From assembly GCA_024137785.1 (NCBI GenBank), contig JAHRHZ010000271.1, forward strand, positions 3,943,369 to 4,007,368: DNA of 64,000 bases. The letters are read 5' to 3'. Source of the DNA: Ginglymostoma cirratum (taxonomy: Eukaryota). A program made the position numbers and the translations under genes. The number at the start of each line of letters is the position of its first letter. Position 1 is the first letter of the stretch. Of the stretch, positions 6,121 to 64,000 are shown piece by piece. Below the pieces are notes generated by a model. The model searched no databases, was not told where the DNA came from, and worked only from the letters and a program-made list of their open reading frames with translations.

Positions 6121-9100
6121 GATTCGAGTGGGATAGGGTAAATGGTTTATTTTATTCTATTTTATCTTCAATTCTTTTGTTAATAAATGTATTTTTAATT
6201 GTTAAGGCAAAACCTGCAGCACTATGTGCTTATGTTTCATCAAGGAAAGACTTTGTTAACATCAAAGCAAAGCAAAGCAAAATGTGGCCTTCCAAGCTAG
6301 GTTTCAGTCTGGGATCTGATTTTTCCAGTAATAACATTATCTTGGATTGTAACAATTTAGGGCTGTAAATTGCTTCCTAAGTGTGTTATCAAACAAAATT
6401 TGATATTGAGGCGTATAAGAATGTATTAAGTCTTAAGATCAAAATATTTGTCAAGGATGGAGATTTGAAGGAACATTTTAACAGTGCAGAAGCACTCGAT
6501 GAGAGGCCAAAATAATTTAACACAACTCAATATCACTTGGAGATTTCATTCTGATTAATTTTGAGCACATATTCACGAGCGGGTATGACAAGATTGCGTG
6601 GCTTTGATTTGATCCATTGGGTTGGGGATAGTTTTTGTTTGGCATGCATGTAGTGTGAGTGAAAATCACTGTAGTCTGCCCTCTAGTTAGAGGCTGGCAG
6701 TGGGTTTAGCCTGTGGATCACCACACCTCAGGCAGAGCTGAGCCTTTGTGGTGACCTTAGCTGACCCAGAAATTGGGGACACAGCAGTGGTGATATATTG
6801 CAATACAAACCAGCCATTCCTAACCACAGAAACGTGCAGAGGTGAGTAGACTGTTCTGAAGGCTAGAGTAACAAAACAGTTTTCACTTGACCTCATACAC
6901 AGCGCAGTTCTGGTGAAGCGCACACGATTGTTTCAAGCTCAGATGGTATTTTGATTGCTGAAATGATAGGAACTTGGAAAGAGAATAGTTGCCGAAGTAA
7001 ATCTTTACCCGCTAAAATTGTTCAAGAACCACATCAAGGTTTTTAAATGATCTCAAATGGGTACACTGAGATCATTCAAACAAATTAGATGTTTAGTGAA
7101 ATGTTCATTACTGAAGCAGATCTGCTGAAGATCATGAGTTCACATTGCGCAACCTGAAAAATTTGAAGGCCAAACAGTATCATACTGTCCTTAAACAAAA
7201 CCTTACTGTTTTGCTGCACTAATCTCCTGCACCCTGGTTTGTTTTCTAGTAGTATTCTGCATGTTGTTTAATATTTGCTTTTGGCTCCTGCATCTACTTT
7301 GTGTTTTCTCTGGTTCCTGTGCTCATTCTATGTCATCTCCTGTGCTTGTTTTGCCTTATTTTCCCTGTATCCTGTATCCCATTTTGTGTTCTCAACGTTC
7401 TAAACTCTGCTTTGTACTGCCCCAGCAACATAGAAAGTAACACACAAGCAGACCACACAATACACACTGCTTGCTATCCACAAGACAAGTTGCTTTATCT
7501 CTGCATATTGTCACTGACTGTCATCAATTCACTATCTTTTGGTGACCTGTAAACAACCTGCATGATTGAACCCCCTGTTGCTTTGCAGTATCAGCAAGTG
7601 TAATGGATAAGGGTGGATTAGGCTATCTAGTGGTGTACCGTTCAAACTGATCAAAGTCACAGAAATGCCTGAGATATGTATCCAAGCAGGAAACTAAAAT
7701 CTGTTTGTAGTTAACATCATCACTCCCCATTCACTGCAGCATTTACAGAAAGAGAGGAACAAGGCACGCCTTTTTCTTCTCAATTACAGTAATCAAACAC
7801 ATTTGATCTCTCAATTTGCTTTCTTAGTCTCCCACCCCCGCAATTGATGCTGACTAATGATATGGAAACTTAACATTGCCGTATCTTCTTGACCTGGATC
7901 TTTGAGAACAATTCTGTTTTTTAGTTTACACCTTATCTTTATCTTAACTGGAATGGGTTCTCTAAACATTGCGCTGATAATGAAAAGATTCCTCTTCTAG
8001 CTTCATGCAGTTCAAAAAGGATAGGTTTGTAGCCCCATTTTGCATATTTATTTTCAATGCCCAATATGGTTTACTGACCCATGGCCAATAGCTACTTCAG
8101 CACATGTGGTTCTTGAAAGTTTCCCTGGTTGAATTATGGCAATTTTTTGCAATGCACAAAATGTGCAGTTAATGCTAGAGATATGAGTTTGTCAATATCA
8201 GTCTGGGTACGTTTTGAACTAGGTGCTGTCTACATAAGTATTTTAAAATAAAAGATACATCAGCCCCAATTTTGGATCAGTGACAAAGACAGGCAGCTCA
8301 CCATTCAGTCTTAAAGTTGACACCAAGCATCTTTTTTTTTGAATAATAGCTTAGAGATCCTGAAGAGCCTTTCCAGAAAGGCAAGTGTACTGTGGAGTGT
8401 GTGAACCAGGGCAAAAGATGTTCTCAATTCAATCTTTCAGGAATCTTCATTGAGAAATGCAAAAGCCAAACTAGGAACTATAAACATAAATAACTAATTC
8501 AATTTAATTGCATTCAAATCACGTCCAGAAATAAAAATAAAATGAGGGAAAGAAAGATGGGATTAAGGGAGAGAAATGAAAGTGACCTGAAAGGAAAAAA
8601 GCATAAACAAGAATTTAACATTTTAAATTGAATTCTCAAGGTATGGAAATCCACACTTAGAAACATAAATCTTCAACGCCAGAGAAGTTATTTTGAATCT
8701 CACTGCACTGCACTGTTAAAAAATTAATTTACACCCTGATGCAGGTTTAAATTTTTCCTGTGTGTTTAGTGGGTTACAAATTGATAAGTAGCATAACTTT
8801 AAATCTTTCATGTACCTTGATGGCAAATCTACTGGGCAGGTACCAGTGTGGTGAAACATGTAGAGAAGTAAGGTAACTCCGAATACAACTTTCAGATTTC
8901 TGCTTTTAACTGCACAAGTGAGGACACTGGAAGTTGCTATCCCACTTGCCTTGTAATAACAGTGAGTTATAATACCTTCCACAAGATTAGCATCAATGAA
9001 TTTATGGCCTGGATTCCACAGCCCGAAATGGTGTTAGAACTATTTTCAAAGGAAATTTGCATAATTATTTGAAGAAACAACTGCAATGTTCTAGAGATGG

Positions 9101-16529: not shown

Positions 16530-17640
16530 TGTAGTGAAGGGCAGCTACAGGGTACCTGACATCAACTCGTTTGATGCAGGACTGGTTGCCAACAGGCAAC
16601 CTCCTCATTGTTTGACTGGAAACCATGCCTTTGATAAGTGAGATAACAAGGTGGAGAGCTGGATGAACACAGCAGGCCGAGCAGGAAGGCTGATGTTTCT
16701 GGGCCTAAACCCTTCTTCAGAAATGATTTCTGATGTTGTTTGGCCTGCTGTGTTCATCCAGCTCGACACCTTGTTATCTCAGCATCTGCAGTTCCAACTA
16801 TCTCTGAATCCTTTAAGTGCTGTGGGATTGTTGAAGGTTGCTGTTGGATCATTGATTAACCCAGGCCCATTGGGAAATTGATCCATTTTGAAAACATGAG
16901 GAGTCTTTGAATAAGGCTTTGGCCTCCCCAACTTCACACAGGGCTAGAGAGGAGCTTGAAATGGGAGGGGAAAAATCTAATTGTAATGCGGGGGGCGAAG
17001 ATACCAATGGCATAGATAGAGCTATGCTCTGCAGAGGGAGTATGAACAGATTGGGCTACATTGAATGGCAGAATCACATAGATGATAGTCTTTGGATTAC
17101 TACCTGAACCACAAGCCACTTGGCATAGGGGAAATATGACCAGACAGTTGAAAGCATGGTTCAAAGTTTGGTAAATGGGCTTTGATGGGTCAGATGCTGA
17201 CACCCAATACTGAGGGAAGAAGGAGGTGTAACACTGGGAGGGTCTTCACCTGAATCATGTTCCAATCAGTGGCCAGGTGAATCCTATAACTAGGGCTATA
17301 GAGAGGGTTCCACTCTAAATCGTGGGGAAGAGTGGCGGGTCCACATGAAAGGAATTATAGAAATTATAATGGATCAAAGTTACTGGTGGGATTAGGTTCC
17401 AGGTCCCACAACTGTTACTACACTGTATGAAAGTGTATTGACTCTTGATTTTTGATCAGACAAAATTAAAACCAAATGATACTTGACCCAGACAACCAGT
17501 GCGTAGCTGGAGGAACACAGCAGAAGTAGGGTCCTGACCCAAAATGTCAACTTTCCTGTTCCTCTAATGCTGCCTGGCTGTGCTCCTCCAGCTTCACACT
17601 GTTATCTCTTACTCCAGCATCTGCAGTTCTTGCTATTACT
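16530..17640. mobile_element. Penelope-like remnants including inverted terminal pairs (16640-16805 and 17497-17640)
   Basis: gagataacaaggtggagagctggatgaacacagcaggcc pairs with its reverse complement at 16742-16780; degenerate CTGAAGA..GAAAC motif; possible RT remnants at about 16850-17260. Confidence 0.6.
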
Positions 17641-20600
17641 GAGTAATACTCGACCAACGTCAGGTTATTACTTTACAGTTCCCTTGGTTGCATTTTCTGA
17701 CTGAGGTTTGGCCTTCATCCCTCCCTGTCTGTCTCTGTCTCTCACTCTCTGGTCTTAGTCCTCCTTGTCAGGGTGAGGCTGATGGCTCCTCAACACTTAA
17801 TTTCATCTCTCAAATCATTTATTGTTCCTGCACAAGGAAGCATTACAAAACTTAGTTTTTAACCTCTTTACAGCCATCATATCATCTCACACCAAAGTCA
17901 AATTAACTTGATAACTGACTGTGAGGGTTACTAGCCTGATTTGATTACTTTTTAATTAAAACTCAAATTGATAAGACGCCTGTGCAGCAATGAACAAAGA
18001 CCTTTTCATGCTGTACAAAAGGGTATTCAGTGCACTGATACAGTGTTCCTTTTGTACACGACTCTATTCATTCCAACGATATAACCTGTTTAAGGTCTGC
18101 GCATCAAGGTCTCTTGCTTTAATCTCATGGCGCCGTGTTTTTACATTGTAGTCAATTACAAATATTTTTCACATCTCTGCGCTTATAATACCAATCCATT
18201 AATGCAGATATTTATATTGCAAGATTTCTAATTGACTAGCTGACACTAGTTAGTTGTAAATTTGCAGAGTTTGCAACATCCATTATGTTGGTAACTAGCC
18301 TATGTCATTATGGGGATTTCTGAGTAAACACTTGATTGAAATCCTAATGTAAGCCGTGGTGATTAATATCACACTTCATCAGACCTGTACTTTATTCCTT
18401 AATGTCCATCACAGCTCATTTAGGCATACTACCTATAGTTACAGTAATATGCATGATATATAGCAATACTGTTGTGTACCGCCAAGCAACTTGTCTCTTC
18501 TATTAGCCTCATATGCTCTTCATCAACCTGGAGGAGTGTAAGATTAATTCACTGGGGACATCACCAAGTCAAAGGAGTACATAATAAATTGGACAGTACT
18601 GAGAGGTATGGAGAAAGTGAGGAAGCCAGTGTCCACAGATGTGAGCGGAACAGAACAGATTGATATGGTGATAAAAATGACATAAAATACTTTACTAGCC
18701 AAAACATAGGAATTTGAAATAACTGCACAAAGGCTTGTATCCTGTCACAAGTCACCCTTTGTTTACAAGTGCACAGTGTACTCGCTGTGGCCAACCAGCT
18801 TGGAATCAGTTCCTGCAATTCGAGGAGATTCTAAATCCCCTGTTTATATTGCTCAACGAGGGCTTTTCTGTTTGGCTCAGGTTAACAACCCCAATCGAGG
18901 ACTTCATAGTCAACAAGGTCTACCTAGTTCCAATCACTACATCCCTCCCCAACGCAAATCCAGGGATGTAGGCCTGGTATTTCTCTTGTAGGTTTTCCTG
19001 TTATGTTTTTGCCCCAGGTTTGGTTCCTCTGATTCGGACTCTGACGGGTCAGCATATATTGGACCGTGGCCCATCTCTTGAGTCCAAAGAGCTTCGGGAA
19101 AGTTTCCTCCTCTTCTTCCGGCGGTAATGGCATTGAGGCTCCATCCGTTTCGACACTAAATGGAGGGGGAGGACTTGCAGTTTCTGACTGTTCTTTGGGG
19201 CCAGGTATGTCTTGCTCCTGCCCTGTTTGCGAGGTAACAGCTTTCAGGTGATCCACGTGTTTGTTCAGGACTGTATCACCTACCCAAACTTTGTAAGTCA
19301 CAGGACCTGACCTCACATCAACCTCACCTCATACCCACACAGGGCCATTTCTATGGTTCCGGCACCAAACTCTATCCCCTGAACTAAACTGTCTCTCTCG
19401 CTTAGAGGAAGTATTTGGCCTGCATTGGCATTTCTGATGCTGTTTCACCTCCCCCCTCCAGGTCTGGGAATATCAGCTTTAACCTGGTGCAGAGTCTTCT
19501 CCCCACCGGCAACTCTGCTGGAACTATCCCTGTTGTTGCATGTGAGGTGGTCCTGTAGTCGAATAGGAACTGGGACAGTTTGGTATTGAATGAAGCTGTA
19601 GGTTACTTCTTTAAGCCTGCCTTCAAATTGGGACCACTCTTTCCGCCAAACAATGGATGGTATGGAGCTGTCCTTATGTGCCGAATGCCATTCGACTTCA
19701 GGAAACACTCAAATTCCCTGCTGGTAAATGATGTCCCATTGTCCATGACCAATGCATCCTGGAGTCTGTGTATCGTGAATGATGCTCGCATTTTTTCAAT
19801 CATCATCCCTGAGTTTGCTGAATGAACTCTACACATGTCCAACAACTTTGAATGGACATTCACAATGATCAGGAACATTGAGCCTATGAAAGGACTGGCA
19901 TAGTCGACATGTCACTGAGTCCAGGGTTTACCAGGCCATTCCCACAAACATGGGGGTGCAGTGGGTGGCAAGTTTTGACCTGTTGGCAGTCTGGGCACTG
20001 CCCCACCAACACGGCTATGTTGGCATCCAACCCTGACCACCAGACATAGCTTCTTGCCAGCATCATCATCTTGGAAACTCTTGGATGACCCTGGTGGAGT
20101 TTGGCCAGTATCTGGCAGAGACCTTTACTCAGGATGATCACTTTTGCTCCCCATAGTAATATGTGTCCACATCTGATATTGTCAGCCATGACCAGAAGGG
20201 TGTCCAGGAAGTTAAACCCAAATGGACTCTTCCAGGGGAGGCACCACCAGTGGCGTATCTGCCAGTGGGAGGTGGCTCAAGGCTTCCCGGACGGTGTTCT
20301 AACTTGTAAGCTTTGAGAATAAGGACCCACCACTGAATTCTACCAGAAGCTACGGGTGGCGCTGCCTCGTCTTCCTTCAGTAGCCCTAGCAGGGGTTTGT
20401 GATCTGTTACTAAGACAAATTCTGTCTTTAAATGCATTGGTGGAATTTCCTTATGCCAAAGATGACCGCCAAACCTTCCTTCTCTATCTGGGCATATGTG
20501 TTCAGCATCAGCCAAAGTCCGGGAAGTGTACAATATTGGGCATTCCTTTCCATTGGGCCGCGAGTGAGCCAACACTATCCCAATACCATACCAGGAGTCA

Positions 20601-20954
20601 CATGTCAGCACCATCTCTCACTTTGGAGCAGACCTTAGATGACGATGGCTTCTTTTCAGTTCCCTAAATGGCTACTTGGCTACACCACCATTTCCAAGGC
20701 TGACCCTTTTACAACAGCAGATGTAAGAACGCCAAGATGAAGTTTCCATAATAATTTATTAAACAAGGAACGATCTAAGCTCAGGTACAGACCTGGGAGC
20801 TGAGGCTCCTTTGATTGCCATCACTTTATTTTGCAACATATGTAACGCGGTTTTGTTGACTCGTAACCCAAGTAGGTCACTTGGGATGCCTGGAACACAC
20901 ATTTTTCTCTTCTAAGATGTACACCAGTCTGGGAGAAACATTTAAGCACTACAA

Positions 20955-22237: not shown

Positions 22238-22637
22238 NNNNNNNNNNNNNNNNNNNNNNNNNNNNNNNNNNNNNNNNNNNNNNNNNNNNNNNNNNNNNNN
22301 NNNNNNNNNNNNNNNNNNNNNNNNNNNNNNNNNNNNNNNNNNNNNNNNNNNNNNNNNNNNNNNNNNNNNNNNNNNNNNNNNNNNNNNNNNNNNNNNNNNN
22401 NNNNNNNNNNNNNNNNNNNNNNNNNNNNNNNNNNNNNNNNNNNNNNNNNNNNNNNNNNNNNNNNNNNNNNNNNNNNNNNNNNNNNNNNNNNNNNNNNNNN
22501 NNNNNNNNNNNNNNNNNNNNNNNNNNNNNNNNNNNNNNNNNNNNNNNNNNNNNNNNNNNNNNNNNNNNNNNNNNNNNNNNNNNNNNNNNNNNNNNNNNNN
22601 NNNNNNNNNNNNNNNNNNNNNNNNNNNNNNNNNNNNN
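22238..22637. other. Assembly gap (400 N)
   Basis: Run of N. Confidence 1.
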
Positions 22638-22775
22638 CGGTGGGACAGTGTTCTCTGGGGTTTGAGGTACACGGTGGGACAGTGTTCTCTGGGGTTTGAG
22701 GTACACGGTGGGACAGTGTTCTCTGGGGTTTGAGGTACACGGTGGGACAGTGTTCTCTGGGGTTTGAGGTACGCG
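22638..22775. repeat. 34-bp minisatellite, four visible copies next to the gap
   Basis: Unit cggtgggacagtgttctctggggtttgaggtaca, near-identical copies. Confidence 0.95.
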
Positions 22776-22924
22776 GTTTGCCCTTCTGTCATTGTACGCT
22801 GTTTTTGTGCTCTCTCTTTTAAGAGCAAAGTGCTACATTGTTTTCTGCTGCTTGATGTACAAGGTATGACAGTGCATCCTGAGTTACTTGTTGTAGTTTG
22901 CTGACTGTGTATTCCTGGATATAA

Positions 22925-28411: not shown

Positions 28412-28556
28412 GTTATCAAGAAGCCAGGCATCGACAATGAGACTCCAATGATAGGCGATAAAGTATTTGTCCATTATACTGGGACCTTATTAAATGGAAA
28501 AATATTTGATTCAAGTAGAGAAAGAAAAGAACAATTTGTCTTTGATTTGGGTAAAG
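28412..28556 (+). CDS. FKBP5: FKBP5/FKBP4-type immunophilin coding exon (FK1 N-terminal half; equivalent to human FKBP5 exon 3)
   Basis: Acceptor ttcctacAG at 28410-28411 and donor GTAAGT at 28557. The 145 bp exon translates [48 protein letters not shown]+G, a classic FKBP PPIase motif (VHYTG..FDSS). Exon confidence is high; FKBP5 over FKBP4 is about 0.7. Confidence 0.93.
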
Positions 28557-29699
28557 GTAAGTGCTAAATGTAAGCGATGGCAGTTTATATCTGCTAAATC
28601 TCACACAGGAATCAGGGCAACTTCAACCTGTGTCCTTCACAAGCCTAGACTTTCTGCTCATCTGCTGTTGGTTTTGGAATCGCTGCAGGATCTCTGTCAC
28701 TTGGTGACATCGTTGTAAATTACAAAGTCAGCTTTCATCTGTCCGACCAAGACCAGCTTTCCCTCATTACATACTGTCTCAATCCCTCTGATTGGTAAGA
28801 CTGTTTCTTATGTGACCACTATTTAAGAAATCAAATTTTTCCCTCAGCAATGTATTGTAAAGGCAGAGATCATGGCCTTTGGTCCCTTACGCAAACTCTG
28901 TTCTCTCTGTCCCTCACCTTGAGTCCCTCTTAGCCTCACATCTCTCTACCTGTGTCAGCAAATGCAGCCCTAAACCTGTGAATATCTTGGCTTTCCTACC
29001 ATTTTGATCTCATGTGGATCTGAAAGTATTTTCAGTCCATCACTGGAAGCTGGTCCTTTAGCTTCCTCTGCCTTAAACCCTGAAAATGCCTGCCTTAAGC
29101 TCTCTACCTATTTCTCGCATTTTAAGTCCTCCTTTCAAACATACATCTTTGACAAAACTTGTGATCGTCTCCATCTTACCATGTCCTCAACATCATATTT
29201 TTATTAGTATTGCATTGTCTAAAGGGCACAATGTGCAGCAGAAAGACTGGACACACTGTTCCCAGGGAAGAGGAGGGTGGTTTGTGTGTGCAATATTCTG
29301 AAATTGATGATTGTGAAATCCCAGCCTTATCCCGACCTCTTCCAGGTTTCCTGAAGGCAGAATTGAAGGCAAGTGGCAAACCTCCTTGAATCTTGCTGAT
29401 ATTTTATTAGTGTCACTAGAAAGTCCAAATTAGTTCCAAATTTAGGATTTCCCAATCTGTCAGCCACTCTCCAGTATCATCCAGGTAGGGTACACAGTTA
29501 GAGTTTCTTCAATGAAACTGACAAACAGTTAAACCACTGATCAATGACAGTGAAGAGCTCCATTGAAAGGCTGCTGTTTAAAGCTTTTCTTTTCTCAGAG
29601 AATGCTGACACTACATGGCAGATAACTATTGTACCAATTTCTCAGAAGTCACTTTACCTCTCCCAGTACTTCACACACGTTCAGTCACACTTTCCCGTT

Positions 29700-37640: not shown

Positions 37641-37783
37641 GTCAAGTGTTGAAAGCGTGGGATATCGGAGTGGCTTCGATGAAGAAGGGGGAGATCTGTC
37701 AGTTAATCTGTAAACCAAACTATGCCTATGGGGCTGCTGGCAGCCCCCCTAAAGTCCCTGCAAATGCTACATTACTGTTTGAG
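37641..37783 (+). CDS. FKBP5: FKBP5/FKBP4-type coding exon (FK1 C-terminal half; equivalent to human FKBP5 exon 4)
   Basis: Acceptor ccttcaatAG and donor GAG|GTGGGT. The 143 bp phase 1 to 0 exon joins the previous exon in frame: (G)[64 protein letters not shown] matches FKBP5 better than FKBP4. Confidence 0.94.
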
Positions 37784-52278: not shown

Positions 52279-52399
52279 GTTGAACTCATAGACTTCAAAG
52301 GGGAGGATTTAACGGAATGCGAAGATGGAGGCATCATTCGTAGAATTAAGAAGAAAGGGCAGGGTTATTCCACCCCTAACGAAGGGGCTACTGTTGAAG
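52279..52399 (+). CDS. FKBP5: FKBP5/FKBP4-type coding exon (FK1-FK2 linker and FK2 start; equivalent to human FKBP5 exon 5)
   Basis: Acceptor tatttcAG at 52277-52278 and donor G|GTATGA at 52400. The 121 bp exon translates [40 protein letters not shown]+G. Missing from the ORF track. Confidence 0.94.
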
Positions 52400-53383
52400 G
52401 TATGAACTCAGTTACCAGGTGTATTGTAAGGAAGTCATAAAATTTCAAGTTAGGGGACAGTGTATTGACATATGAAAGCCAGAATCACTATTTTAGATTT
52501 GCTTGCAAAGACCAATTTTTATAGTCTTATGTATTGTTCCCATCAACTAAGTTCTAAAGGATAAATATCGTTTGCAGAGAAAGATAAAAACAGCTAAATA
52601 TTGCAAATGCTGGAGATCTGAAATACTGCACCACCTGTTGCTAATGTTTAAGTGTCTTTGCACAGTTACACTAACATCCTATTTATCCACCCTGTGCTTG
52701 TGTTATTTTCCACATTGCTGGAATATTTAATATTCATTTGAGGGGAGTTCAGGTTTACTGCAGTGTTTTAATCACACTTTTAATCAGATACCAGATGATC
52801 AATTATTAATGGTTCAACAATTATTAGGAATTAAGAAATTACAGTTCCACAAATACAGAATGCACTATTCAATAACAGAATGCAGATTCCTTAACAACCT
52901 ATATAAGCCATTTCTCTCAAGGAAATTGAGGAGAAGAACTAATATGAAATGGATATTGTTAATTATCATTTTATGGAAATGAAGAACAGGATATAATGAT
53001 TCTGTGGAAAAGATATTAATGAGTATTAAGTATCGTGTGTTATGATCCACTGGGGGCATATAAATTAATGAGGATTAAATGTAAAATGTAAACTAGGGGA
53101 TCTTGACATCAGCTGTTATGGTGACCTTTCACAGCCTTACAAGGTAACATCTTCTCTCCACTAATTTATCTGCTGGCAGATTTACTCTGAAAACTGGAAA
53201 ACTCCACCCTGTTTCTCAGTTTATCTGCATCTGAAATCCTCATTCATTCCCTTGTGAGTTCCAGGCTTGGTATTCCAAGGAGTCCAGGCAGTATCTCACA
53301 TATCTATCATTTTCTAGCCACCAGCAGTTGTAGAAAACTTAACTGCTTCCCAAAAGTAGAGGATAACTTATCAATGCTGATGA

Positions 53384-53900
53384 GAGGCACGGTGGCTCAG
53401 TGGTTAGCACTGCTGCCTCACAGCGCCAGGGACCTGGATTCCATCCCAGCCTCGGGTGACTGTGTGTGTGGGTTTTGCACATTCTCCCCCTGTCTGTGTG
53501 GGTTTCCTCCCACAGTCCGAAGATGTGCACTCAATAAGAACCGAAAGAACTGAGGATGCTGTAAATCAGGAGCAAAAACAGAAATTGCTGGCAAAGCTCA
53601 GAACTTCTGAGGAAGAGTCACCTGACCCGAAATTCTGATTTCTCTTCACAGATGCCTACAGAATTGCTGAGCTTTTCCAGCAATTTCAGTTTTTGTTGCC
53701 AAAGATGTGTACATTACGTGGATTGGCCTTGCTGAATTGCCCTGTAGAGTCCAAGGATGCACAAGCTGGGTGGGTTAGCCATGATAAATGAGAGGTTAAG
53801 GTGTAGGGTGAGTGGTGTTGGGTCTGGGTGGGTAGTCTTCAGAGGGTTGCTGCAGACGTGATGGGCTGAATGGCCTCTTATTGCACTATTGGGATTGTAT
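53384..53900 (+). mobile_element. HE1-type SINE interrupted by a Penelope-like inverted fragment (about 53531-53698)
   Basis: The SINE resumes after the insert with a duplicated ccgaagatgtgcac/ccaaagatgtgtac. Confidence 0.85.
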
Positions 53901-54202
53901 CAGAGCTGGGTGGTAGAATCTCTGGCTTTAGAGCATTCTAATTAAAGTGGAAGTGTCATACAACAGCAAATAATGGATGGGTTGAGCATTTTGCCCTTTT
54001 CTTTTATCTGAGCTAGGGAATTTTAATTTGTCAAATTTTAACATTAATTGAATAAGAATCTTTAAAAGCTCAGGTAATTCATTAATAAGTTTTTCATAGT
54101 ACATTAGTGGTAAGATTCATTAATAGGATTAAAGCTTATCAGCGGTATTGGGTTGATCAAATATAAATTAACTGGGAAAAGTTATTAATTAACTCATTGA
54201 AG

Positions 54203-57200
54203 ATGGCAGGGCAGATGATGTGTTGCAGCTGCTGCATGTGGGAGGTAGTGGACACCAGTGCAATCGGCAGCAAACATGTCTGCTGTAAATGTCTGCAGCT
54301 CAAGGAACATCAGCTCAGAGTCATTGGCCTGCAGACCCAGCTATAGACACCATGATGCATCAGGGAGGGAGAATGGTGCCTAGATGCTTTGTTCCGGAAG
54401 GCGGTCACACCCCTCAGAATGTGGTCAGTGGTCAAGGACAGGAAGCTGTGACTATGAATGAGGCAGATAATGAGACCAAGAGTTGAAAGTGATGAAGCCT
54501 CAAACCTTCCAATTCTTCAATAGGTTCAAAGTTCTTGAGCTTGTTTGGAGATTGCAAGGTAGATGAACGAGCTGACTACTACACTGCAGTGTGGAAGCCA
54601 TTCAATTGAGGAGGCTAATTAGGAATGTAGAGTAGTCAGGAACAATATAGTCAGGGGGATAGACACAATGCTCTATAGCCAAGACCCAGAACCCAGCAGG
54701 GCTGTGTAGCCTGCATGATGCCAGGGTTTAGGACATCTGTTCTAACTTGCAACAGGTGGAGAGGATTCAGTTGTGGTTTACTATATAGGTACCAGTGACA
54801 TAGTTAAGACGAGGAAAATTGTCCTCTTAAAGAATTATGAGCAGCTAAAAACTAACTTATAAAACAGAACCATAAAAGTAGTAATCTTTGACTATTACTT
54901 GAGCTATAAGCAAATTTGTGTAAATAAGATTAGAGAGACCAATGCATGCGTCAAAGACTGTTGTAGGAGAAATGGGTTTCAATTAATGGGGCACTAGTAG
55001 AAATATTGGGGAAATTAGGAATGGAGCCATTGGGCCCATCTTCACCAGAACAATACTGTGACTAATGTTCTGGTAAAGCATATAACTAGGTAGTAAAGGA
55101 GGGTTTTAAATTAATCAGACGACGCAAAGGGATGATGTGAGAGGAGAGATATTAAAACTTCACAAGGTAGTCAAGCAGGGTAGCAATCTGGGTAATGATA
55201 ACTAGAATGGAGCAGAAAGATTCAGAACATCTCTAAATGTAACAGTGCATTAGCACATAAGGCCAGAGATAACGAAAATGGCAAAAATACTGTTAAATGT
55301 TCTATATCTAAATGTGCACGGCATCCCTAACAAAATGAAAAAATTGTGAGCACAAATAGAAATAACTACATATGATGTTATAGCCGTTAAGGGGACATGG
55401 TTATGAGGTGTGCAAAATTGGAACCTGAACACTGAAGGGCATATGATATTTCAGAATTACAGAATGCTAGGAAAAGATGGTAAATTAGGTTTGTTAATTA
55501 AGAATGACACTAGTGCTGTAGTGAGAAATGACCTTAACTCAATAGGGCAACATGTAGTATCGTTTTGGGTAGAAATAAGAAATAGAAAAATTATGTAGTC
55601 ACTTACAGATTAGTTTGTAGGCCATAAAACAATAATTATAACGCAGGAAGAAATTGATAGGATATGTAACAAAGGTACTATAATAATCATGGGTGAATCA
55701 GATGAGCAATCGTAACCTCAAAGATTTGTTCACAGAGTACATTCAGAACAGTTGCTTAGAGGAGCATGTTCTTTTATCAACCAAAGAGCAGGCTATTCTA
55801 TATCCCATAATGTGTGATGAGACAGGATTAATCAACAGCGTCATTGTAAAGGAACCTCTAGGTGACAGCAATCACAATGTGGCAGAATTTCACATTCAGT
55901 TTCAAGGTGAGAAGTGTGGATGTAAGGATATGTCTTAAACCCGAATAAAAGGTATTTGTAAAGGTATGAAGACTGAGATGGTTAAAGTGAACTGGGAAAA
56001 GAGTCAAAAGGTCATAAGAGATGCAGTGGCAGATATTTAAGGAGCTATTTAATAACCTATTTAGTAATAACAGTAATAATTAATTTTATTAAATTTGTTA
56101 AGTAATTATTAAATAAAGAGTTAACCTAGAGAGAAAGAAGGACTGTTTGAAAAGGAAGCATCATGAAAAGGAGGGAATATGGATGAGAAGGATGGTATCA
56201 AAGTAAAAGTAACATTTTAACTCTGCAAAGACTGTTGACAGGGTTAGAAAATTGGATGGATTTTAAAAACTGCAATGACTGGCTAAAACAGTAAGGGAGG
56301 TGAAATTAGGGTATGAAACAAAGCTAGATGGAAATATAAAAACAGTAAAGCTTGTACAAGTATTTAAAAAGGAAAAGAGTAACTAAGTGGAGAATAAGCC
56401 TGGAAGAATTAAAAATGGAAAAAAGAAGGAAATGTCAACATGTAACTTCTGAGTGTCTCCATTGTAGACGATTTTGAAACATTCTGAAGATACCTAAAAC
56501 TCAGGAGGCAAAAATGAGGGAGATGGTCAAAACAACGACCATCACCAGTGAAATGATACTGGGAAGGTATTATTCATAATACACCTGATAGATTACATCT
56601 TAGAGAGTGGCTAGATAAATAGCTGCGATTATAATCCACCAAAATTGCTAGAATTTTGGAATGGCCCTAGCAAATCGGAAAGTTACAAAAGTAACATTTA
56701 CTCAAGAAAGACGGAGACAGAAAATAAGAACTACATGCCAGGAGGCCTAACATCTGACTTAAGAAAATTGCAAGCATTATTAGTAAGGAGTGTATAACAG
56801 GATTTTTAGAAAATGATGGGATCTGGAAGAGTTAACATGGCTTTGTGAATGTGGAATCGTGTTTGAATAATTTATGAGAGTTCTTTGAGGATGTAACAAA
56901 CAAGGAAGATTAAGAGGACCTGTAGATATGATGTATTTGGATTTTAAAATGTCTTTTGTTAGGGAGACATCATCACAGGCTAAGACATAGATTAAGGGCT
57001 CATGGTGTGCGGGTAATATATTAATGTGGATAAGGCAAAACAAAGAACTGTGGAAGCTGTAAATCTGAAACAGAGACAGAAAGTACTGGAGAAACTCAAC
57101 AGGTCTGGCAGCATCTGTGGAGAGAAAACTGAGTTAATGTTTTGCGTCTAGTGAGGCCCAGATAAAGGACTGGTTAACCAGTGGGAAACAGAGAGTAGGG

Positions 57201-58215
57201 ATAAATTAGTCATTTGCATTAGCAAGTTGTAACCAGTGGAGTGCCAAAGTGATCAGTGCAGGGACAACTATTTACAATCTATTTCAATGACTTGGATGAG
57301 ATGACCAAATGAATGGTAGTTAAGCTTGCTGGTGACATTGAGATAGGTAAGAAAGTAAGTTGTCAAGAGGAGATAGAGAGACTGCAAAGAGTCATAGATT
57401 GAGTGGGAAAAAAGTTGGCAGATGGTGTATAAAGTGGGAAATGCAGACTTGTCCACATTATCAGGAGCATTAGAAAGCTATTTAAATGGACAAAGATTGC
57501 AAAACTCGGTGGGACAGAGGGACCTTGATGTCCTGGTACAGGAAATGTAAAACATTAGTTTGTAGGTACAGTAAGTGACTAGGAAGGCAAATGGAATGTT
57601 GGAATTTAATATAAGGGAATGGAATATCAAAGAAAGGCTGTTTTTCTGCAGCTGTATAGGGTCTTGGTGTGACAACACCTGGTGTTCTATGTAGATCCTT
57701 GACCTTTTTTTAAAAAGGATATAGCTACTTCAGAAGCTGCTCAGAGGGGATTCACTTGACTTATTCCTAGGATGAAGGACTTCTTTTGTGAAAAAAGATT
57801 GAACAAGTTGGGCTTTCGCCTGCTGGAATTTAGAAGAACGCAAAATGTTCTTAGTGGAGCATAAAGTTCTGAGGAGACTTGTAAGGGTAGATAAGGACAG
57901 GATGTTTCCTTGTGTAGAGTAGACTAAAATAGGTGACAAATTTACAAGCTAGAGATTTCCCTTTTAATGCGAAGATGAGAAGAATTTTTTCTTTCAGTCT
58001 GCCGAATTCTATTCCCCAGAAAACAGTGAGAGATGAGTCATTGAATTTATTCAAGGTTGAATTAAATAGTGATTTTGATAGACAAAAGAGTCAAATGTTA
58101 CTGGCACGAACAGGGAAATGGGGTTAATATCTCAAATAGTTAGGCCAGTTTCTTACTGATCAGATCAGCACACTTTAAGGACTGAATACCCTACTTTTGT
58201 TCCTAAGGCCTATGT
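54203..58215 (+). mobile_element. Near full-length, heavily decayed CR1 LINE (ORF1 Zn finger and esterase; ORF2 endonuclease and RT)
   Basis: ATG at 54203: MAGQMMCCSCCMWEVV..HVCCKCLQL. SGNH-like IVRGIDT..VVVYYIGTSDI, endonuclease LYLNVHGI..EPLGDSNHN and RT VDMMYLDFK. Penelope-like insert at about 57035-57160. Confidence 0.85.
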
Positions 58216-58229
58216 TCCAACATTCCTGT

Positions 58230-60290
58230 ACTTATAGTAATCCAAAACTCTCTGCTGCCCATCTCTTAAACTACACCAAATCCCATTCACACGGTGTTCC
58301 TGCATTCAATAATCTACATTGGCTCTCAGAAGCAACAGCTCAATTTTAAAGTCCTCATCGTTATGTTCAAGTACTTCATTTCTCCTGCTTTGTAATCTTC
58401 TCCGAGCCTGTAATCCTCCAAGGCCTTTGAGTGTTTTTATTCTTTCATGGGATGTGAGCATTGCTGGCTGGGCCTGCATTTACTGACCATCCCTAATTGC
58501 CCTTGAAAAAGAGTTGTTGAGTTGCCTTCTTGAGCCACTGCTGCCCACGGGGTGTAACTAGACACTCAATGCTATTAGGAAACAGGCTTTGAATCAGTGA
58601 CAGTGAGGAACTATGACATAGTTCCAACTTAAGATAGTGTATGACTTAGAAGTTAACACACAGGTGATAGTTCTCCTATGCATCAGTTGCTCTTGACATT
58701 CTACGTGTTTTTAGTGCATGTTTGGGTGGTACTTTCCAGAGTTGCTTGGATGCTGCAGTGCATCTTGTAGATGGTACCCACTGCTGCCACTGAACGTCAA
58801 TGATAGAGAGAGTGAATGTTGAAAGTAGTGGATCAGGTGCTAATCAAGTGGCCTGCTCTGCCCGGAGTGGCTCTGAGCTTCTTGAATGCTGCATTCATCC
58901 AGGCAAATAGAGTATTCCATCACAATCTCAACTTGTGCCTTTTAAATGATGGGCAGGCTTTGGGGAACCTGCAGGTGAGTTACTCACCACAGAATTCCCA
59001 GCCTCTGATTTTTTTTTTTTTGTAGCCACAGTATTTATGTATGGCTTGGCCAGATCACTTACTGGTGAGTGGTAGCCCCAGGATGCTCATAGTGGTAGAT
59101 TTAGCAATGATAGCGCCATTGAATGTCAAAGGGGAGAAAGTTGCATCCTGTCTTACAGGAGATAGCCATTACGTGACACTTGTGCTTTAGAAAATGAGGA
59201 GTGGTGAATAGAGTTGAGTATTTTGCAGATATCAGTGAACGTCTCCATTTCTGACCACATTGATGGAGAGAAGGTCACTGAGAAAGCAACTTCTTCAATT
59301 CTGGCCTCTGGAGTTTCCACTATTATAATCACTTAATCTTCAGTGGCTGCACCTTCAACTGCTGAGGTCCTAAGCTCTGGTGTTTCCTCCCTAAGTCTTT
59401 GCTTCTTTTACTTCTCCTCAGACTCTCCTTGAAACCTATTGCTTTGACCATAGTCATAGAGTCATACAGACACTTCTGTCTAACTCATGCACACTGACCA
59501 GACATCACAATCTGACCTAGTCTCATTTGCCAGCATTTGGCCCATATCCCTTTAAATCCTTCCTTTCCATATACCCATCGAGATGTCTTTTAAATGTTGC
59601 AATTATACCAGCCTCCACGACTTCCTCTGGCAGCTTATTCCATATACACCACCCTCTGCATGAAAATGTTGCCCCTTACATCCCTTTTAAATCTTTCCCT
59701 CTCATCTTAAACCTATGCCCTCTAATTTTAGACTCCCCTACCCTAGGAAAAAAACCTTAGCTATTCATCTTATCAATGCCCCTCATGATTTTTTAAACCT
59801 CTATAAGATCACCCCCCAGCCTCCAACACTCCAGGAAAATAGCCCCAGTGTATTCAGCCTCTCCTTTTGCTCAAATCTTCCAACCCTGGCAATATCTTTC
59901 TGCACCCTCTCAAGTTTAACCACATCCTTCCTATAGAACAGCGATTAGAATTGTGCGCAGTATTCCAAAAGTGGCTTCGCCAATGTCCTATCCAGCCACA
60001 ACATGATCTCCCAGCTCCTATATCAGTGCTCTGACCAATGAAGGCAAGTGTGCTAAACACCTTCTTCACTGCCCTGTCTAGCTGCAACTATACTTTCAAG
60101 GAACTGTGTACTTGCAACACTAGGTCTCTGTTTGGCAACACTCCCCAACACTACCATTAACTGCGTGAGTCCTACCATATCTTTTATCATCTGACCTAAT
60201 GTCTTCTTGTGTGTTTCAGTGTCCAATTTGGTTTGATAACCAGGTTGTGAAACACTTGGAGATGTTTTATCACATTGAAGACACATATCG
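58230..60290. mobile_element. Old L2-like 3' end (+; about 58230-58435, 59290-59450, 60170-60290) split by a second-family LINE (58440-59290, -) and a CR1 (59451-60170, -)
   Basis: L2-like LHWL..FKVLIV.FK and a gtgaaacacttggagatgtttt tail flank the two inserts. Confidence 0.7.
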
Positions 60291-60589
60291 ATATATAGTC
60301 CTGCTGTAGGGTGAATGTCTCAGCACAAGATTCATATAACACTCGATAAGTGATGAACAAATTGCACCCTGAACTGGTTGGATGGCTGTGTGTAATTAAA
60401 GTTCCACATGTCATGGAGAGAATGATTCTCTTTTTAAGTGTACTTCACGAATCTAAATCTCTGCTACGAAATGAGTACATGATTGGTTTTGAAATGGGAA
60501 TAAAGAATATTAACAATGGAAAGTAATATAGGGGTCCTGCCATTTCTTTGAAGGATCGTATTTTGCTTATGCTACAGGAGTGGCTGATT

Positions 60590-60668
60590 TGAGTCAGAAT
60601 GTACTGAATGTTCTGTTCAGGCACTTCAGTCCAAACTCCCTGCCAATCTCCTAAGTACAGCATGTTCT
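60590..60668. promoter_or_regulatory. Candidate steroid-hormone response enhancer (two GRE/ARE-type sites plus AP-1)
   Basis: AGTACAgcaTGTTCT at 60654-60668 fits the RGnACAnnnTGTnCY consensus. TGTACTgaaTGTTCT is at 60600-60614 and TGAGTCA at 60590-60596. All lie in an island without recognisable repeats in the intron after the PNEGATVE exon. Confidence 0.65.
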
Positions 60669-61389
60669 TGCCAGGACAAGTACCTCAAGGCAAAGACTTA
60701 AACAAACTCTCAAAGATGGGGAAGAGAGAACACTTAATAATAGAAGCTGTGTTCTAAGTTCTTCCTTCTCAATGTTAGCTACTTCTAATCTTTCCTTGAG
60801 CGGGATGCAAGGGGAGATACCGCCAGCTCGCTATCTATATCCCTTGTTCCAGTCCCTTTTGAACTATTGTAGCCTTTGCCTTGGAAAGTGTCTGGTATGA
60901 CTGAAGCATTGTCCAGATCAGCAAGTACACCGTAGTTCTGCAGGGTCATTGCCAAACTCGTTACAATTAATGACCTTTCCTATAACAATACTGTTAAAAT
61001 GCTCGAATCAGTTCACTCTGTACATATGAATTAGTGAAAATAATGACTGTTCATATTTATTTTTAAAATGATAATTGTACTATTCCAGAAATAAAGCCTG
61101 CTTTGGTGTTTTGCTGCTGAACACAGTGGGACTGTGATCTTTTCTTACGCCTCTCATGCTTTCAATGCTACTCCAATCTTTATGGCTCTCCCCATATCTT
61201 TAACACTTCCTTCATGGTGTCACTCATACCACAGGGTTGGTTTCCCAACAGCACCATCCCTTTTGGTGACTGTGGTAGCTTTGATGGGCATTTGTGACTT
61301 TAGAACATAAATGATTCTCATTGATTCACTGCTGGATGGAGTGGAACGCGGGGGGCACGGTGCCAAGAGCAGGTAGAATCTTTAATGAC

Positions 61390-61790
61390 AGAAAATTGCA
61401 TTTACATAGCACCTTTCAGAACCTCAGGCCATCTTACCAACTTTATAGTTGACGATGTACAGCGGTTAAATAAATGGCCAGGTTAATCTTTTATTTGAGT
61501 CTGAGTTGAAGGATACGTGTTGATCAGACACCAGGGAGAATTCCCCTACACTTTTCAAAATAATGTCATGGGATCTTTTACAGCAACCTACAAAGGCAGA
61601 CATGAACTTTGTTCAACATCTTGTCTCAAAGATAGCACCTCCAATAATGCAGACAAATGCTCCAACAATGCAGCACGCCCTTAGGTTTCCACTATAATGT
61701 CAGCTTAGAGATTTGCACTCAAGGTGCTGAAATTGGACTTTATCCCTTGACCTCCCGGCTGAGAGTTAAGCATTACCTACTGAGCTATGA
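61390..61790 (-). mobile_element. Deu-domain SINE (SacSINE1-like)
   Basis: gacaccagggagaattcccct..atgggatctttta..aaagatagcacctcc is the reverse complement of the Deu core; L2-like tail. Confidence 0.7.
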
Positions 61791-61959
61791 TTGAAAGTTG
61801 TTGTAATCAAGTGGAGTTTAAACTCAATATGTCACAGTTAACAGCCATAACATAAAGTAACCCACACAGAGGGATGATGGATTTTGCTCAGAGCATTCAG
61901 CCTTTAAAGAACAAATAATAACTTTTGTCCTTCGAGTTTTGAGCAGTCAGAGGGTCTTT

Positions 61960-63990
61960 TTTAGCTGTTTGTTCAGGGAGGTGAGCTAGTCTGGAGGTGG
62001 TGATGAACTGCCTTCTTGAACCACTGCATTCCATAAGGTGTAGGAGCACCCAGACAGATGGAGTTTCAGGATTTTGTCAAACAACATTGAAGGAACTGTG
62101 GTATATCTCCCCAGCCAGGATTCTGTGTAGCTTGGAGGGGAACTTGCAGTCTATTGGTTTTCCCATGTATCTGCTGCTCTTGTCCTTCTAGATGGTAGAG
62201 GTAGTGGATTTGCTATTGTTGAAGGAGCCTTAGTGAGTTGCTGATGTGCATCTCGTAGATGGTACACGCTGCTGCCACTGTGTGTCAGTAATAGAAGGAA
62301 TCAATGTTTCTGGTGGTTCTTAGGCTGCCAATTCAATGGGGTCCTTTGTTCTATATGATAACTTACTTCTTGCCTATTATTGAACTGCACCCATCCAAAC
62401 AAATAGGAAGATTTCCATTGAATTCCTTACTTTCACCTTGTGGATAATAGACAGGCTTTTGAGACTCACGTGCTGAGCTTGTCACCGCAGAATTTCTCAC
62501 TTCTGACCTGTTCTTGTTACCATTGGACTTATATGGCAGGTCCAGTTCAGTTTCTGGTCAATATTTGTCATTAGGATGTTGATATTGGAGGATTCAGTGA
62601 TGGTAATGACACTGGATTTCAGGGGGAAATGGTTAGATTCTCTCTTATTGAAGATGATGATTACCTGGCACTTGTGCAGCCCAAATGTTGCTTTCCAATA
62701 TCAGCATAAACCCACTTAGTGTCCAGATCTTCCTTTACATGCATGTGGACTGCTTCAATGTCTGAGGAGCCATGAATGGTGCCAAACATTGTTTTATCAT
62801 CAGTGACAGTCCCTGCTTCTGAACTTATTTAGGATTGATGGTCATTAACGAAGCAACTGAAGGTGTTTGGGCTTAGGACACTACTCTCATATTCTCCTGC
62901 AGTGATATCCAAGGAGTGAAATGATTGACCTGCAACAAATAAAGTGATCTTTTTATATGCCAGGCAAGATCCCAGCAAGTGGAGATTTTGCCCCGATACC
63001 CATTGTTTCCAGGTTTGCTCGGGCTCCTTGAAGCCATTCTTGATCAAATGTGGCATTGATGTTAAGGGCTGTCACTTTCATCTTCATCTCTAGAATTCAG
63101 CTCTTTAGTCCATGTTTGAACCATGCTGTAATGAGATCAGGAGCTAAATGGCCCCCGGTGGGATCTGAACTGGGTATCACAGATCTGGCTATTTCTGAGT
63201 AAGTGATATTTTGATGGCGTTGTTGACCACACCTTCCATTACTTTGCTGATGATTACAGGTAGAATAATGGGTTAATAATTAGCTAGGTTAGATTTGTCC
63301 TGTTTATGGAAAGCACTACCTGGATGATTTTCCACATTGCCAGGTAGATGCCAATGTTGTAGGTGTATTGGAACAGCTGGATTAGATAGTATCGCTATTT
63401 CAGGAGCACAAGTCCTCAGCGTTATTACCAGAATGTTATCAGGGTGCTCAGCCTTTGCAGTATCCAATATCTCCAGCTGCTTCATGGTGTCATTTGGAGT
63501 GAATCATATTGGGTGAAGACTAGAATCTGTGACGCATCTTTTGCACTGATGTGCTGGGCTTGTCCTTCATTGAGGATGGGGATATCTATGGAGCCTCCCC
63601 ATCCAGTGAGTTCTTTAATTGTCCACCACCATTCACAACTGGATGTGACAGGACTGCGGAGCTTAGATGTAATCCGTTGATTATAGGATCACTTAGCTCT
63701 GTCTATCACTTGCTGCTAATGCCGCTTGTCATGTAAGTAGTTTTGTTTTGTAGCTTCACCAGGTTGAAACCTAATTTTTAGGTATCCGTGGTGTGACTGC
63801 TGGCATGCCACTCCTGCACTCTACACTGAACCAGGGTTGACAGTCATGGCAGAGTTGGGGAAAGGAGTGTTCACCAGGCCATGAAATTACAGACTGCATT
63901 TAAAACAATTCTGCTGCTGCTGCTGCCGAAGGCCCACAGCCCCTCATGGATAACCAGTTTTGACTTGCTTGATATGTTCAAAATCTACCT
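61960..63990 (-). mobile_element. Second-family non-LTR retrotransposon, RT region, decayed
   Basis: LDTAKA..PDNI..LRTCAPE..KQDKSNLANY and SVLSPNTFSCFVND. Confidence 0.85.
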
Positions 63991-64000
63991 ACATATCATG

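Follow-up and report, generated by a model that had tools for sequence, protein, structure and literature searches.

Paired hormone-response-like sites in the intron after the PNEGATVE exon of shark FKBP5: a candidate steroid-responsive enhancer

INTRODUCTION

A paired hormone response element in intron 5 of human and mouse FKBP5 was reportedly described by Hubler and Scammell in 2004. In mammals, FKBP5 is a direct steroid target, and the response runs via intronic elements (PMC2709584; GRE 6.1, PMC1904358). Two of the human elements, ARE VIII and ARE IX, lie 16 nt apart in the fifth intron, are kept in the mouse, and act as an enhancer (PMC2709584); the region that holds them is the same as GRE 6.1 (PMC1904358) and is conserved among mammals (PMC6305129, PMC12193527). 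As far as the available portions of PMC1904358 describe them, orthologous mammalian elements retain their entire core, spacer included. The human gene also carries a loose cluster of three sites in intron 7 (ARE X-XII), which is the strongest enhancer in the available portions of PMC2709584. The feedback loop between the receptor and FKBP5 is established in mammals (PMC11244253, PMC10687720, PMC8244946).

Outside mammals, zebrafish fkbp5 is GR-dependent (PMC10565112, PMC8526736) and is part of a GR-klf9-fkbp5 circuit (PMC8526736). Given the intronic FKBP5 elements of mammals and the control of zebrafish fkbp5 by GR, comparable sites in a shark are to be expected more than they are surprising. 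In cartilaginous fish, the GR and MR of the elephant shark drive the MMTV and TAT3 reporters, which are rodent-derived (PMC10446182), and receptors of this group can therefore read such elements. Elasmobranch GRs have a low hormone sensitivity, and DOC and corticosterone are the steroids to which they respond best (PMC3116920). A role of 1alpha-hydroxycorticosterone as a glucocorticoid has yet to be confirmed, and in the catshark dexamethasone lowers 1alpha-hydroxycorticosterone and acts via a mifepristone-sensitive receptor (PMC8772811); the available text of that paper is without any mention of "fkbp." Among the matches listed in our literature search, which did not extend to most subscription journals, none dealt with the control of fkbp5 by steroids in cartilaginous fish.

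Here, we analyze a 64,000-nucleotide stretch of DNA from the shark Ginglymostoma cirratum (hereafter, the window), in which an original prediction had placed a pair of hormone response elements and an AP-1 site in the equivalent of FKBP5 intron 5.

RESULTS

Three coding exons, all with AG/GT ends, were found on the plus strand of the window. The most upstream (28412-28556; 145 bp; in our assumption exon 3 by human numbering) encodes the first half of FK1, matches Pfam family FKBP_C, and covers residues 36-83 of the human FKBP5 and FKBP4 chains. Its translation is identical to the Hemiscyllium FKBP5-like protein (P0002) at 45 of 48 residues and to a whale shark protein (P0017) at 36 of 48, P0017 spanning just those 36. 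The second exon (37641-37783; 143 bp; presumably exon 4 by human numbering) encodes the second half of FK1, corresponds to residues 85-131 of the solved chains, and is identical to both P0002 and P0017 at 47 of 47 residues. The third (52279-52399; 121 bp; which we take to be exon 5 by human numbering) has PNEGATVE at its end and agrees with P0017 at 40 of 40 residues; its length is that of FKBP4, human FKBP5 being 2 residues shorter. Together, the three exons are identical to P0017 at all 123 residues in common. No further coding exons were found upstream of them in the window.

The named proteins nearest to these exons are FKBP5-like entries of sharks and rays. Searched one by one against solved structures alone, the exons are ambiguous between FKBP5 and FKBP4. 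A maximum-likelihood tree was built from 38 named proteins, picked from 126 hits to span groups; it contains full-length relatives and leaves out the window exons, and, having no outgroup, it is midpoint rooted for drawing only. In this tree, FKBP4 (10 rows, including FKBP4 of the chimaera Callorhinchus) is split from the 28 others with support of 100/100, and the FKBP5 proteins of cartilaginous fish and bony vertebrates fall together, apart from FKBP4. Because of this split and the identity of the exons to named shark FKBP5-like proteins, we conclude from sequence comparison that the host gene is FKBP5, in agreement with the original prediction. FKBP4 was considered as the host on account of a first exon that matches the FKBP4 chain slightly better, an FKBP4-like proline loop, and the 2 extra residues; the tree excludes it. 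The motifs described below had also been offered as support for the FKBP5 assignment, a role in which they are unneeded and would be circular.

A GT donor at 52400 opens the intron that follows the PNEGATVE exon (52400-64000, plus strand), which is still open at the end of the window and which we take to be intron 5 by human exon numbering. A tblastn search of 52400-64000 with three shark FKBP5 proteins did not find the next exon (best match, E = 1.5), and an exon 6 ahead of the motifs is ruled out on this ground. Since no later exon precedes the end of the window, the motif cluster belongs to the intron after the PNEGATVE exon, 8.2 kb inside it, just as had been proposed.

All three motifs of the original prediction were recovered in this intron: an exact match to the AP-1 consensus, TGAGTCA (60590-60596); a degenerate hormone response element, TGTACTgaaTGTTCT (60600-60614); and a near-perfect palindromic GRE/ARE/MRE/PRE of the IR3 type, AGTACAgcaTGTTCT (60654-60668). 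Together, they span 79 bp. The site at 60654 matches the consensus RGNACAnnnTGTNCY with zero mismatches and is the only site in the 64-kb window to do so. In a matrix scan of the whole window, it ranks first under both of the matrices described below (16.4 bits of a possible 17.0), and the claim that it is the best GRE match in the window, made by eye, holds. The site at 60600 departs from the consensus twice (T at positions 1 and 6) and retains G2, A4, C5, G11, T12, and C14; it ranks third under the literature matrix (13.5 bits) and seventh under our own approximate matrix (11.5 bits). It has the IR3 form, and its half-sites can also be read as a direct repeat spaced by 3 bp. It lies within a 9-bp tandem duplication (60597-60605 and 60606-60614, 8 of 9 bases identical), one of 17 comparable 9-bp tandem loci in the window, and, since its form is like the product of such a duplication, one slippage could have made it.

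Three weaker IR3 sites, which the original prediction did not include, lie at 60354-60368 (10.6 bits under the literature matrix and 9.3 under our own), 60915-60929 (11.1 and 7.3 bits), and 61010-61024 (12.0 bits, rank 9, and 9.0 bits). These three and the two named sites all have inverted hexamers with G2 and C5 around a 3-bp spacer; among the five, the full consensus is found at 60654 only.

The five sites lie in an island (60310-61380) that has no other copy in the window. Self-BLAST of the window at E = 1e-3 gave no match across 60177-61992, and a more sensitive in-window search gave nothing better than E = 0.13 inside the island and one repeat-like match at the left edge of that stretch (60177-60257, E = 3e-5), which carries the left-hand repeat on to about 60257. 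The island had been described as free of recognizable repeats; among in-window comparisons, this holds. Interspersed repeats do flank it as described, at 59495-60176 on the left (minus strand; five further stretches of the window match it at 67-75% identity) and at 61993-62677 on the right (repeated within the window). We take the left one to be the 3' end of a CR1-type LINE, and 61385-61800, for which no in-window copy was found, to be a decayed SINE by its features. In the frames tested, Pfam gave no family for the flanking repeats. Self-repeated sequence makes up about 20% of the window, so that old repeats were likely missed.

No Rfam family or tRNA was matched in the window, and a structured RNA or tRNA is ruled out on that basis. 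Two frames of the island had no Pfam match. Translated frame 60655-60897 (plus strand) had no protein relative, and frame 60448-60684 (minus strand) had 1 hit of 1.84 billion (E = 2e-4; 23 residues, 44%); because the DNA is non-coding, these searches are uninformative on conservation. One acceptor-like tract was seen, at 60779.

Taken singly, neither the perfect site nor the AP-1 site is remarkable. By chance, 64 kb should contain 0.38-0.56 perfect sites, and the window holds 10 core sites against 8.4-8.6 expected. Sites with at most one mismatch number 14, against a shuffle mean of 9.3, and 14 was reached by 9 of 100 shuffles. The site at 60654 alone is not significant (57 of 1,500 and 120-201 of 2,000 simulations).

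To score pairs, we used two matrices. Our own approximate matrix was composed after the sites were seen, and a second was therefore built from published probes, as the base counts of 14 probe cores (PMC2709584, Table S1); the elements on which it rests are predictions, and AR bound 9 of 13 of them well. With the literature matrix, the score of the pair was reached in 1 of 1,500 order-3 Markov windows, by 1 of 1,439 column-permuted motifs on the real sequence, and at none of 10 other spacer lengths. With our own matrix, a pair within 100 bp reached it in 1-4 of 2,000 Markov windows (orders 1, 3, and 5) and for 1 of 1,439 decoys. Among decoys built with the same G..C self-symmetry as the half-site, it was reached by 0 of 2,639 (literature matrix) and 8 of 2,639 (own matrix). 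The decoys in these tests are not independent of one another. When plain patterns were used, a perfect and a core site fell within 100 bp in 17-19 of 2,000 simulated windows and in 2-3 of 2,000 for the last 11.6 kb.

The wider cluster behaves differently under the two matrices. With the literature matrix, five sites in 670 bp were equaled by 3 of 1,439 decoys and in 0 of 1,000 Markov windows, and the three extra island sites compare with 0.59 expected (P = 0.022); with our own matrix, the 1-kb cluster was equaled by 40 of 1,439 decoys and in 49 of 1,000 simulations, with no excess of extra sites (P = 0.36). Consensus half-sites in the island number 12 against 3.5 expected, an excess that gives P = 0.026 once the four in the chosen sites are removed. 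Under an additive score with lower thresholds, the pair was reached by 11-85 of 1,500 simulations (spans of 100-150 bp) and is outscored by a cluster at 57800-57894 in LINE-like sequence. At 8 bits per 100 bp, there are six clusters in the real window and 1.1 under the Markov null, and the excess is found everywhere in the window; the Markov null is too lenient, because the real window is richer in clusters throughout.

The region was chosen by eye ahead of testing. A fair reading of these numbers is a per-window probability of order 0.001-0.02 for the receptor pair, which is found in the gene and the intron where it was predicted. The proposal of paired hormone-response-like sites beyond chance is upheld by the Markov, permuted-motif, and symmetry-matched controls.

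Several other features of the window were noted. A second cluster of receptor sites lies at 8099-8220 and 8410-8424, in the equivalent of intron 2 and upstream of the first exon found. Its sites are at 8099 (12-13 bits), 8153, 8206, and 8410, and it has no in-window repeat copy; the spacings from 8099 to 8153 (54 bp) and from 8153 to 8206 (53 bp) are the same as that of the intron-5 pair. The second-ranked single site in the window (29248-29262, 13.4-13.7 bits) is about 690 bp past the 145-bp exon and has a weaker partner at 29223. Three weak sites are found in LINE-like sequence at 57800-57908; the 57800-type site recurs at 17043 and 21961, and half-matches to the element are thus part of a repeat family. 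In the whole window, IR3 sites of at least 9 bits number 39 against 21.8 simulated (3 of 1,500), but a gene-wide enrichment is not established because this number is also attained by 12 of 95 closely matched decoys. A broken LTR-retrotransposon pol with integrase and RNase H matches occupies 19603-20617 (minus strand). At 22238-22777, a 400-base assembly gap is followed by a 34-bp tandem array (4.1 copies, 99%); consensus half-sites occur in the array, which was masked in the half-site, literature-matrix pair, cluster, and symmetry-decoy tests.

The AP-1 site is present in the cluster, as predicted, but we do not accept it as independent support for an enhancer. Its center is 14 bp from that of the 60600 site. 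At 14-18 bp between centers, GR and AP-1 can synergize or antagonize depending on the Jun/Fos make-up, and the spacing here is in that range. TGASTCA occurs 12 times in the window against 13-16 expected, and an AP-1 site this close has P of 0.015-0.05 before allowing for the choice among motifs. Three of the 15 motifs that were scanned fall within the core (AP-1, an NF1 half-site, and an HSE-like 8-mer), and AP-1 adds little because this choice among co-factor motifs must be counted. The motif at 60641-60646 (minus strand), 8 bp upstream of the 60654 site, which we take to be an NF1-type half-site, may be a chance occurrence: there are 45 in the window and 0.12 is expected in the 170-bp core. 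The HSE-like 8-mer at 60606 was rejected as a heat-shock element, having no third in-phase unit. Motifs enriched at GR-bound regions include AP-1, and the shark locus is like composite GRE/AP-1 elements in that an AP-1 consensus adjoins a receptor site (PMC1904358; PMC11244253, as far as their available text goes). Unlike those elements, the shark AP-1 is a consensus match alone, at a frequency attainable by chance.

We compared the shark pair by eye with the 27-base probes of ARE VIII and ARE IX, which include 6-nt human flanks (PMC2709584, Table S1). As in the human gene, the shark sites are located in the FKBP5 intron that follows the PNEGATVE exon and consist of two close IR3 sites, one degenerate and one palindromic. 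The start-to-start distances (31 bp in human and 54 bp in the shark) are both near whole helical turns, and the degenerate-then-palindromic order would be common to the two if the human numbering follows the gene. The gap between the sites, however, is 39 nt in the shark and 16 nt in human. The strong cores are identical at 12 of 15 bases, an agreement that the consensus alone explains, and the weak cores at 7 of 15. The spacers (0 of 3 and 1 of 3) and the flanks (5 of 24) agree at chance level. Unlike ARE VIII/IX, the weak shark site is a tandem duplication with an adjoining AP-1 consensus.

The conservation of core plus flank that marks the mammalian intron-5 enhancer was thus not found in the shark island. 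Judged by its bases, the island would fall outside the mammalian element, yet it appears to resemble that element in its way of working. The comparison gives no apparent sign of common descent, and the "deeply conserved enhancer" of the original prediction is unsupported so far, in view of the different gap and of spacers and flanks that agree with human only at chance level. A shared ancestor and a turnover of sites are both in play; turnover has a precedent in the Klf9 element, which is conserved in tetrapods and was not found in ray-finned fishes (PMC8724051, available portions).

Other known elements were also compared. The half-sites of human ARE VII, a single site in intron 5 that AR bound weakly in vitro (PMC2709584), match those of the 60654 site at 11 of 12 bases, with different spacers, and human ARE XI has the same two half-sites as the 60600 site in swapped order, again with different spacers. 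A counterpart of the human intron-7 cluster would lie outside the shark window. Zebrafish fkbp5, like the shark gene, has several predicted elements and belongs to a non-mammal, there under GR control; its predicted GREs fall within the promoter, exon 1, and intron 1, and none is reported for intron 5 in the available part of PMC10565112.

DISCUSSION

We propose that shark FKBP5 has in this island an intronic enhancer that responds to hormone and operates in the manner of the mammalian intron-5 enhancer, and we assign this reading a probability of about 0.68. By analogy with mammals and zebrafish, a liganded dimer of a 3-ketosteroid receptor would bind the site at 60654; GR or MR is the most likely candidate, and AR and PR read the same element. 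A second dimer would bind at 60600, 54 bp away, which is about five helical turns and would place both dimers on the same face of the helix. This second dimer and the weaker nearby sites would add cooperativity, and AP-1 perhaps helps to hold the chromatin open. Over a distance of more than 60 kb, the enhancer would then loop to the upstream promoter and raise FKBP5, whose product would damp the activity of the receptor. The DNA by itself would name neither the receptor nor the hormone.

The most serious challenge to this proposal is a neutral coincidence, in which a chance match to the consensus gained a second site through the 9-bp duplication in old unrecognized sequence and was noticed because of the mammalian story. 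We regard this as unlikely, although the base rates speak for it: 0.38-0.56 perfect sites and about 8.4 core sites are expected (10 core sites are seen), comparable tandems number 17 in the window, a weak cluster in LINE-like DNA scores higher, and AP-1 sites are at background frequency. Yet the pair and the cluster exceed nearly all of the real-sequence controls, the motif and the intron were predicted beforehand by the mammalian work, and, with the literature matrix, sites beyond the two named ones are also in excess. That the motifs are passengers in a decayed transposon, a cryptic exon, or a non-coding RNA seems to us very improbable. The self-repeated share of about 20%, with old repeats likely missed, and the acceptor-like tract at 60779 are compatible with such an origin; the lack of an in-window copy and of an Rfam match, together with two island frames that have neither a Pfam match nor a close protein relative, argues against it.

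Two narrower versions of the enhancer reading concern where the element came from and which receptor it serves. The island could be a direct homologue of human ARE VIII/IX (GRE 6.1), inherited from the jawed-vertebrate ancestor with its surroundings eroded. The shared intron, the two sites in the same order (if the human numbering follows the gene), the 12 of 15 identical bases in the strong cores, and the 31- and 54-bp distances near whole helical turns are consistent with homology, which we nevertheless find doubtful. The gaps differ (16 and 39 nt). The weak cores share 7 of 15 bases, the spacers 0 of 3 and 1 of 3, and the flanks 5 of 24, whereas in orthologous mammalian elements the complete core, with its spacer, is preserved (PMC1904358). 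The weaker shark site also has the look of a local duplication. Moreover, the zebrafish elements described in the available text occupy the promoter, exon 1, and intron 1 (PMC10565112), and the tetrapod Klf9 element was not found in ray-finned fishes (PMC8724051). Alternatively, a functional element might serve chiefly androgens or progestins rather than stress steroids. Such a role would fit the direct-repeat layout with a 3-bp spacer at 60600, which is the AR-selective type of human ARE III and ARE XI, the binding of the mouse intron-5 region by AR in prostate and not by GR in thymus (both PMC2709584), and the low hormone sensitivity of elasmobranch GRs (PMC3116920). It sits poorly with the non-selective palindrome at 60654, with the IR3 core kept in 60600, and with the dexamethasone effect via a mifepristone-sensitive receptor in the catshark (PMC8772811), and we consider it rather unlikely.

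Returning to the enhancer of shark FKBP5, a bolder and frankly speculative extension, which we would not expect to hold, is that the feedback loop was wired via this intron before sharks and bony vertebrates split. The place and the weak-then-strong, in-phase layout would then have been kept for ~450 million years, with all other bases replaced, and the 54-bp-spaced shark cluster in intron 2 (8099-8220) would belong to the same picture. If true, an enhancer older than the split would offer a native target in the shark on which to examine whether 1alpha-hydroxycorticosterone truly acts as a glucocorticoid; a native element, with fkbp5 mRNA as a read-out of stress, would make that question testable. 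If the island descended from the ancestor of the human enhancer, it would stand as one of the rare stress-hormone enhancers that have kept their position throughout the jawed vertebrates.

Two minor observations concern likenesses to other sequences. The 12 bases at 60648-60659 agree exactly with the human ARE IV probe, in its flank and first half-site. We set this likeness aside, because that element lies upstream of intron 5 by its number and one such match is a plausible coincidence among 13 probes. In the exon at 37641-37783, the FK1 loop of shark FKBP5 has an FKBP4-like proline where human FKBP5 has leucine, and both this proline and the linker longer by 2 residues are common to all nine shark and ray proteins compared. 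This loop position presumably governs receptor potentiation, and, given its FKBP4-like state, shark FKBP5 may be a less pure inhibitor.
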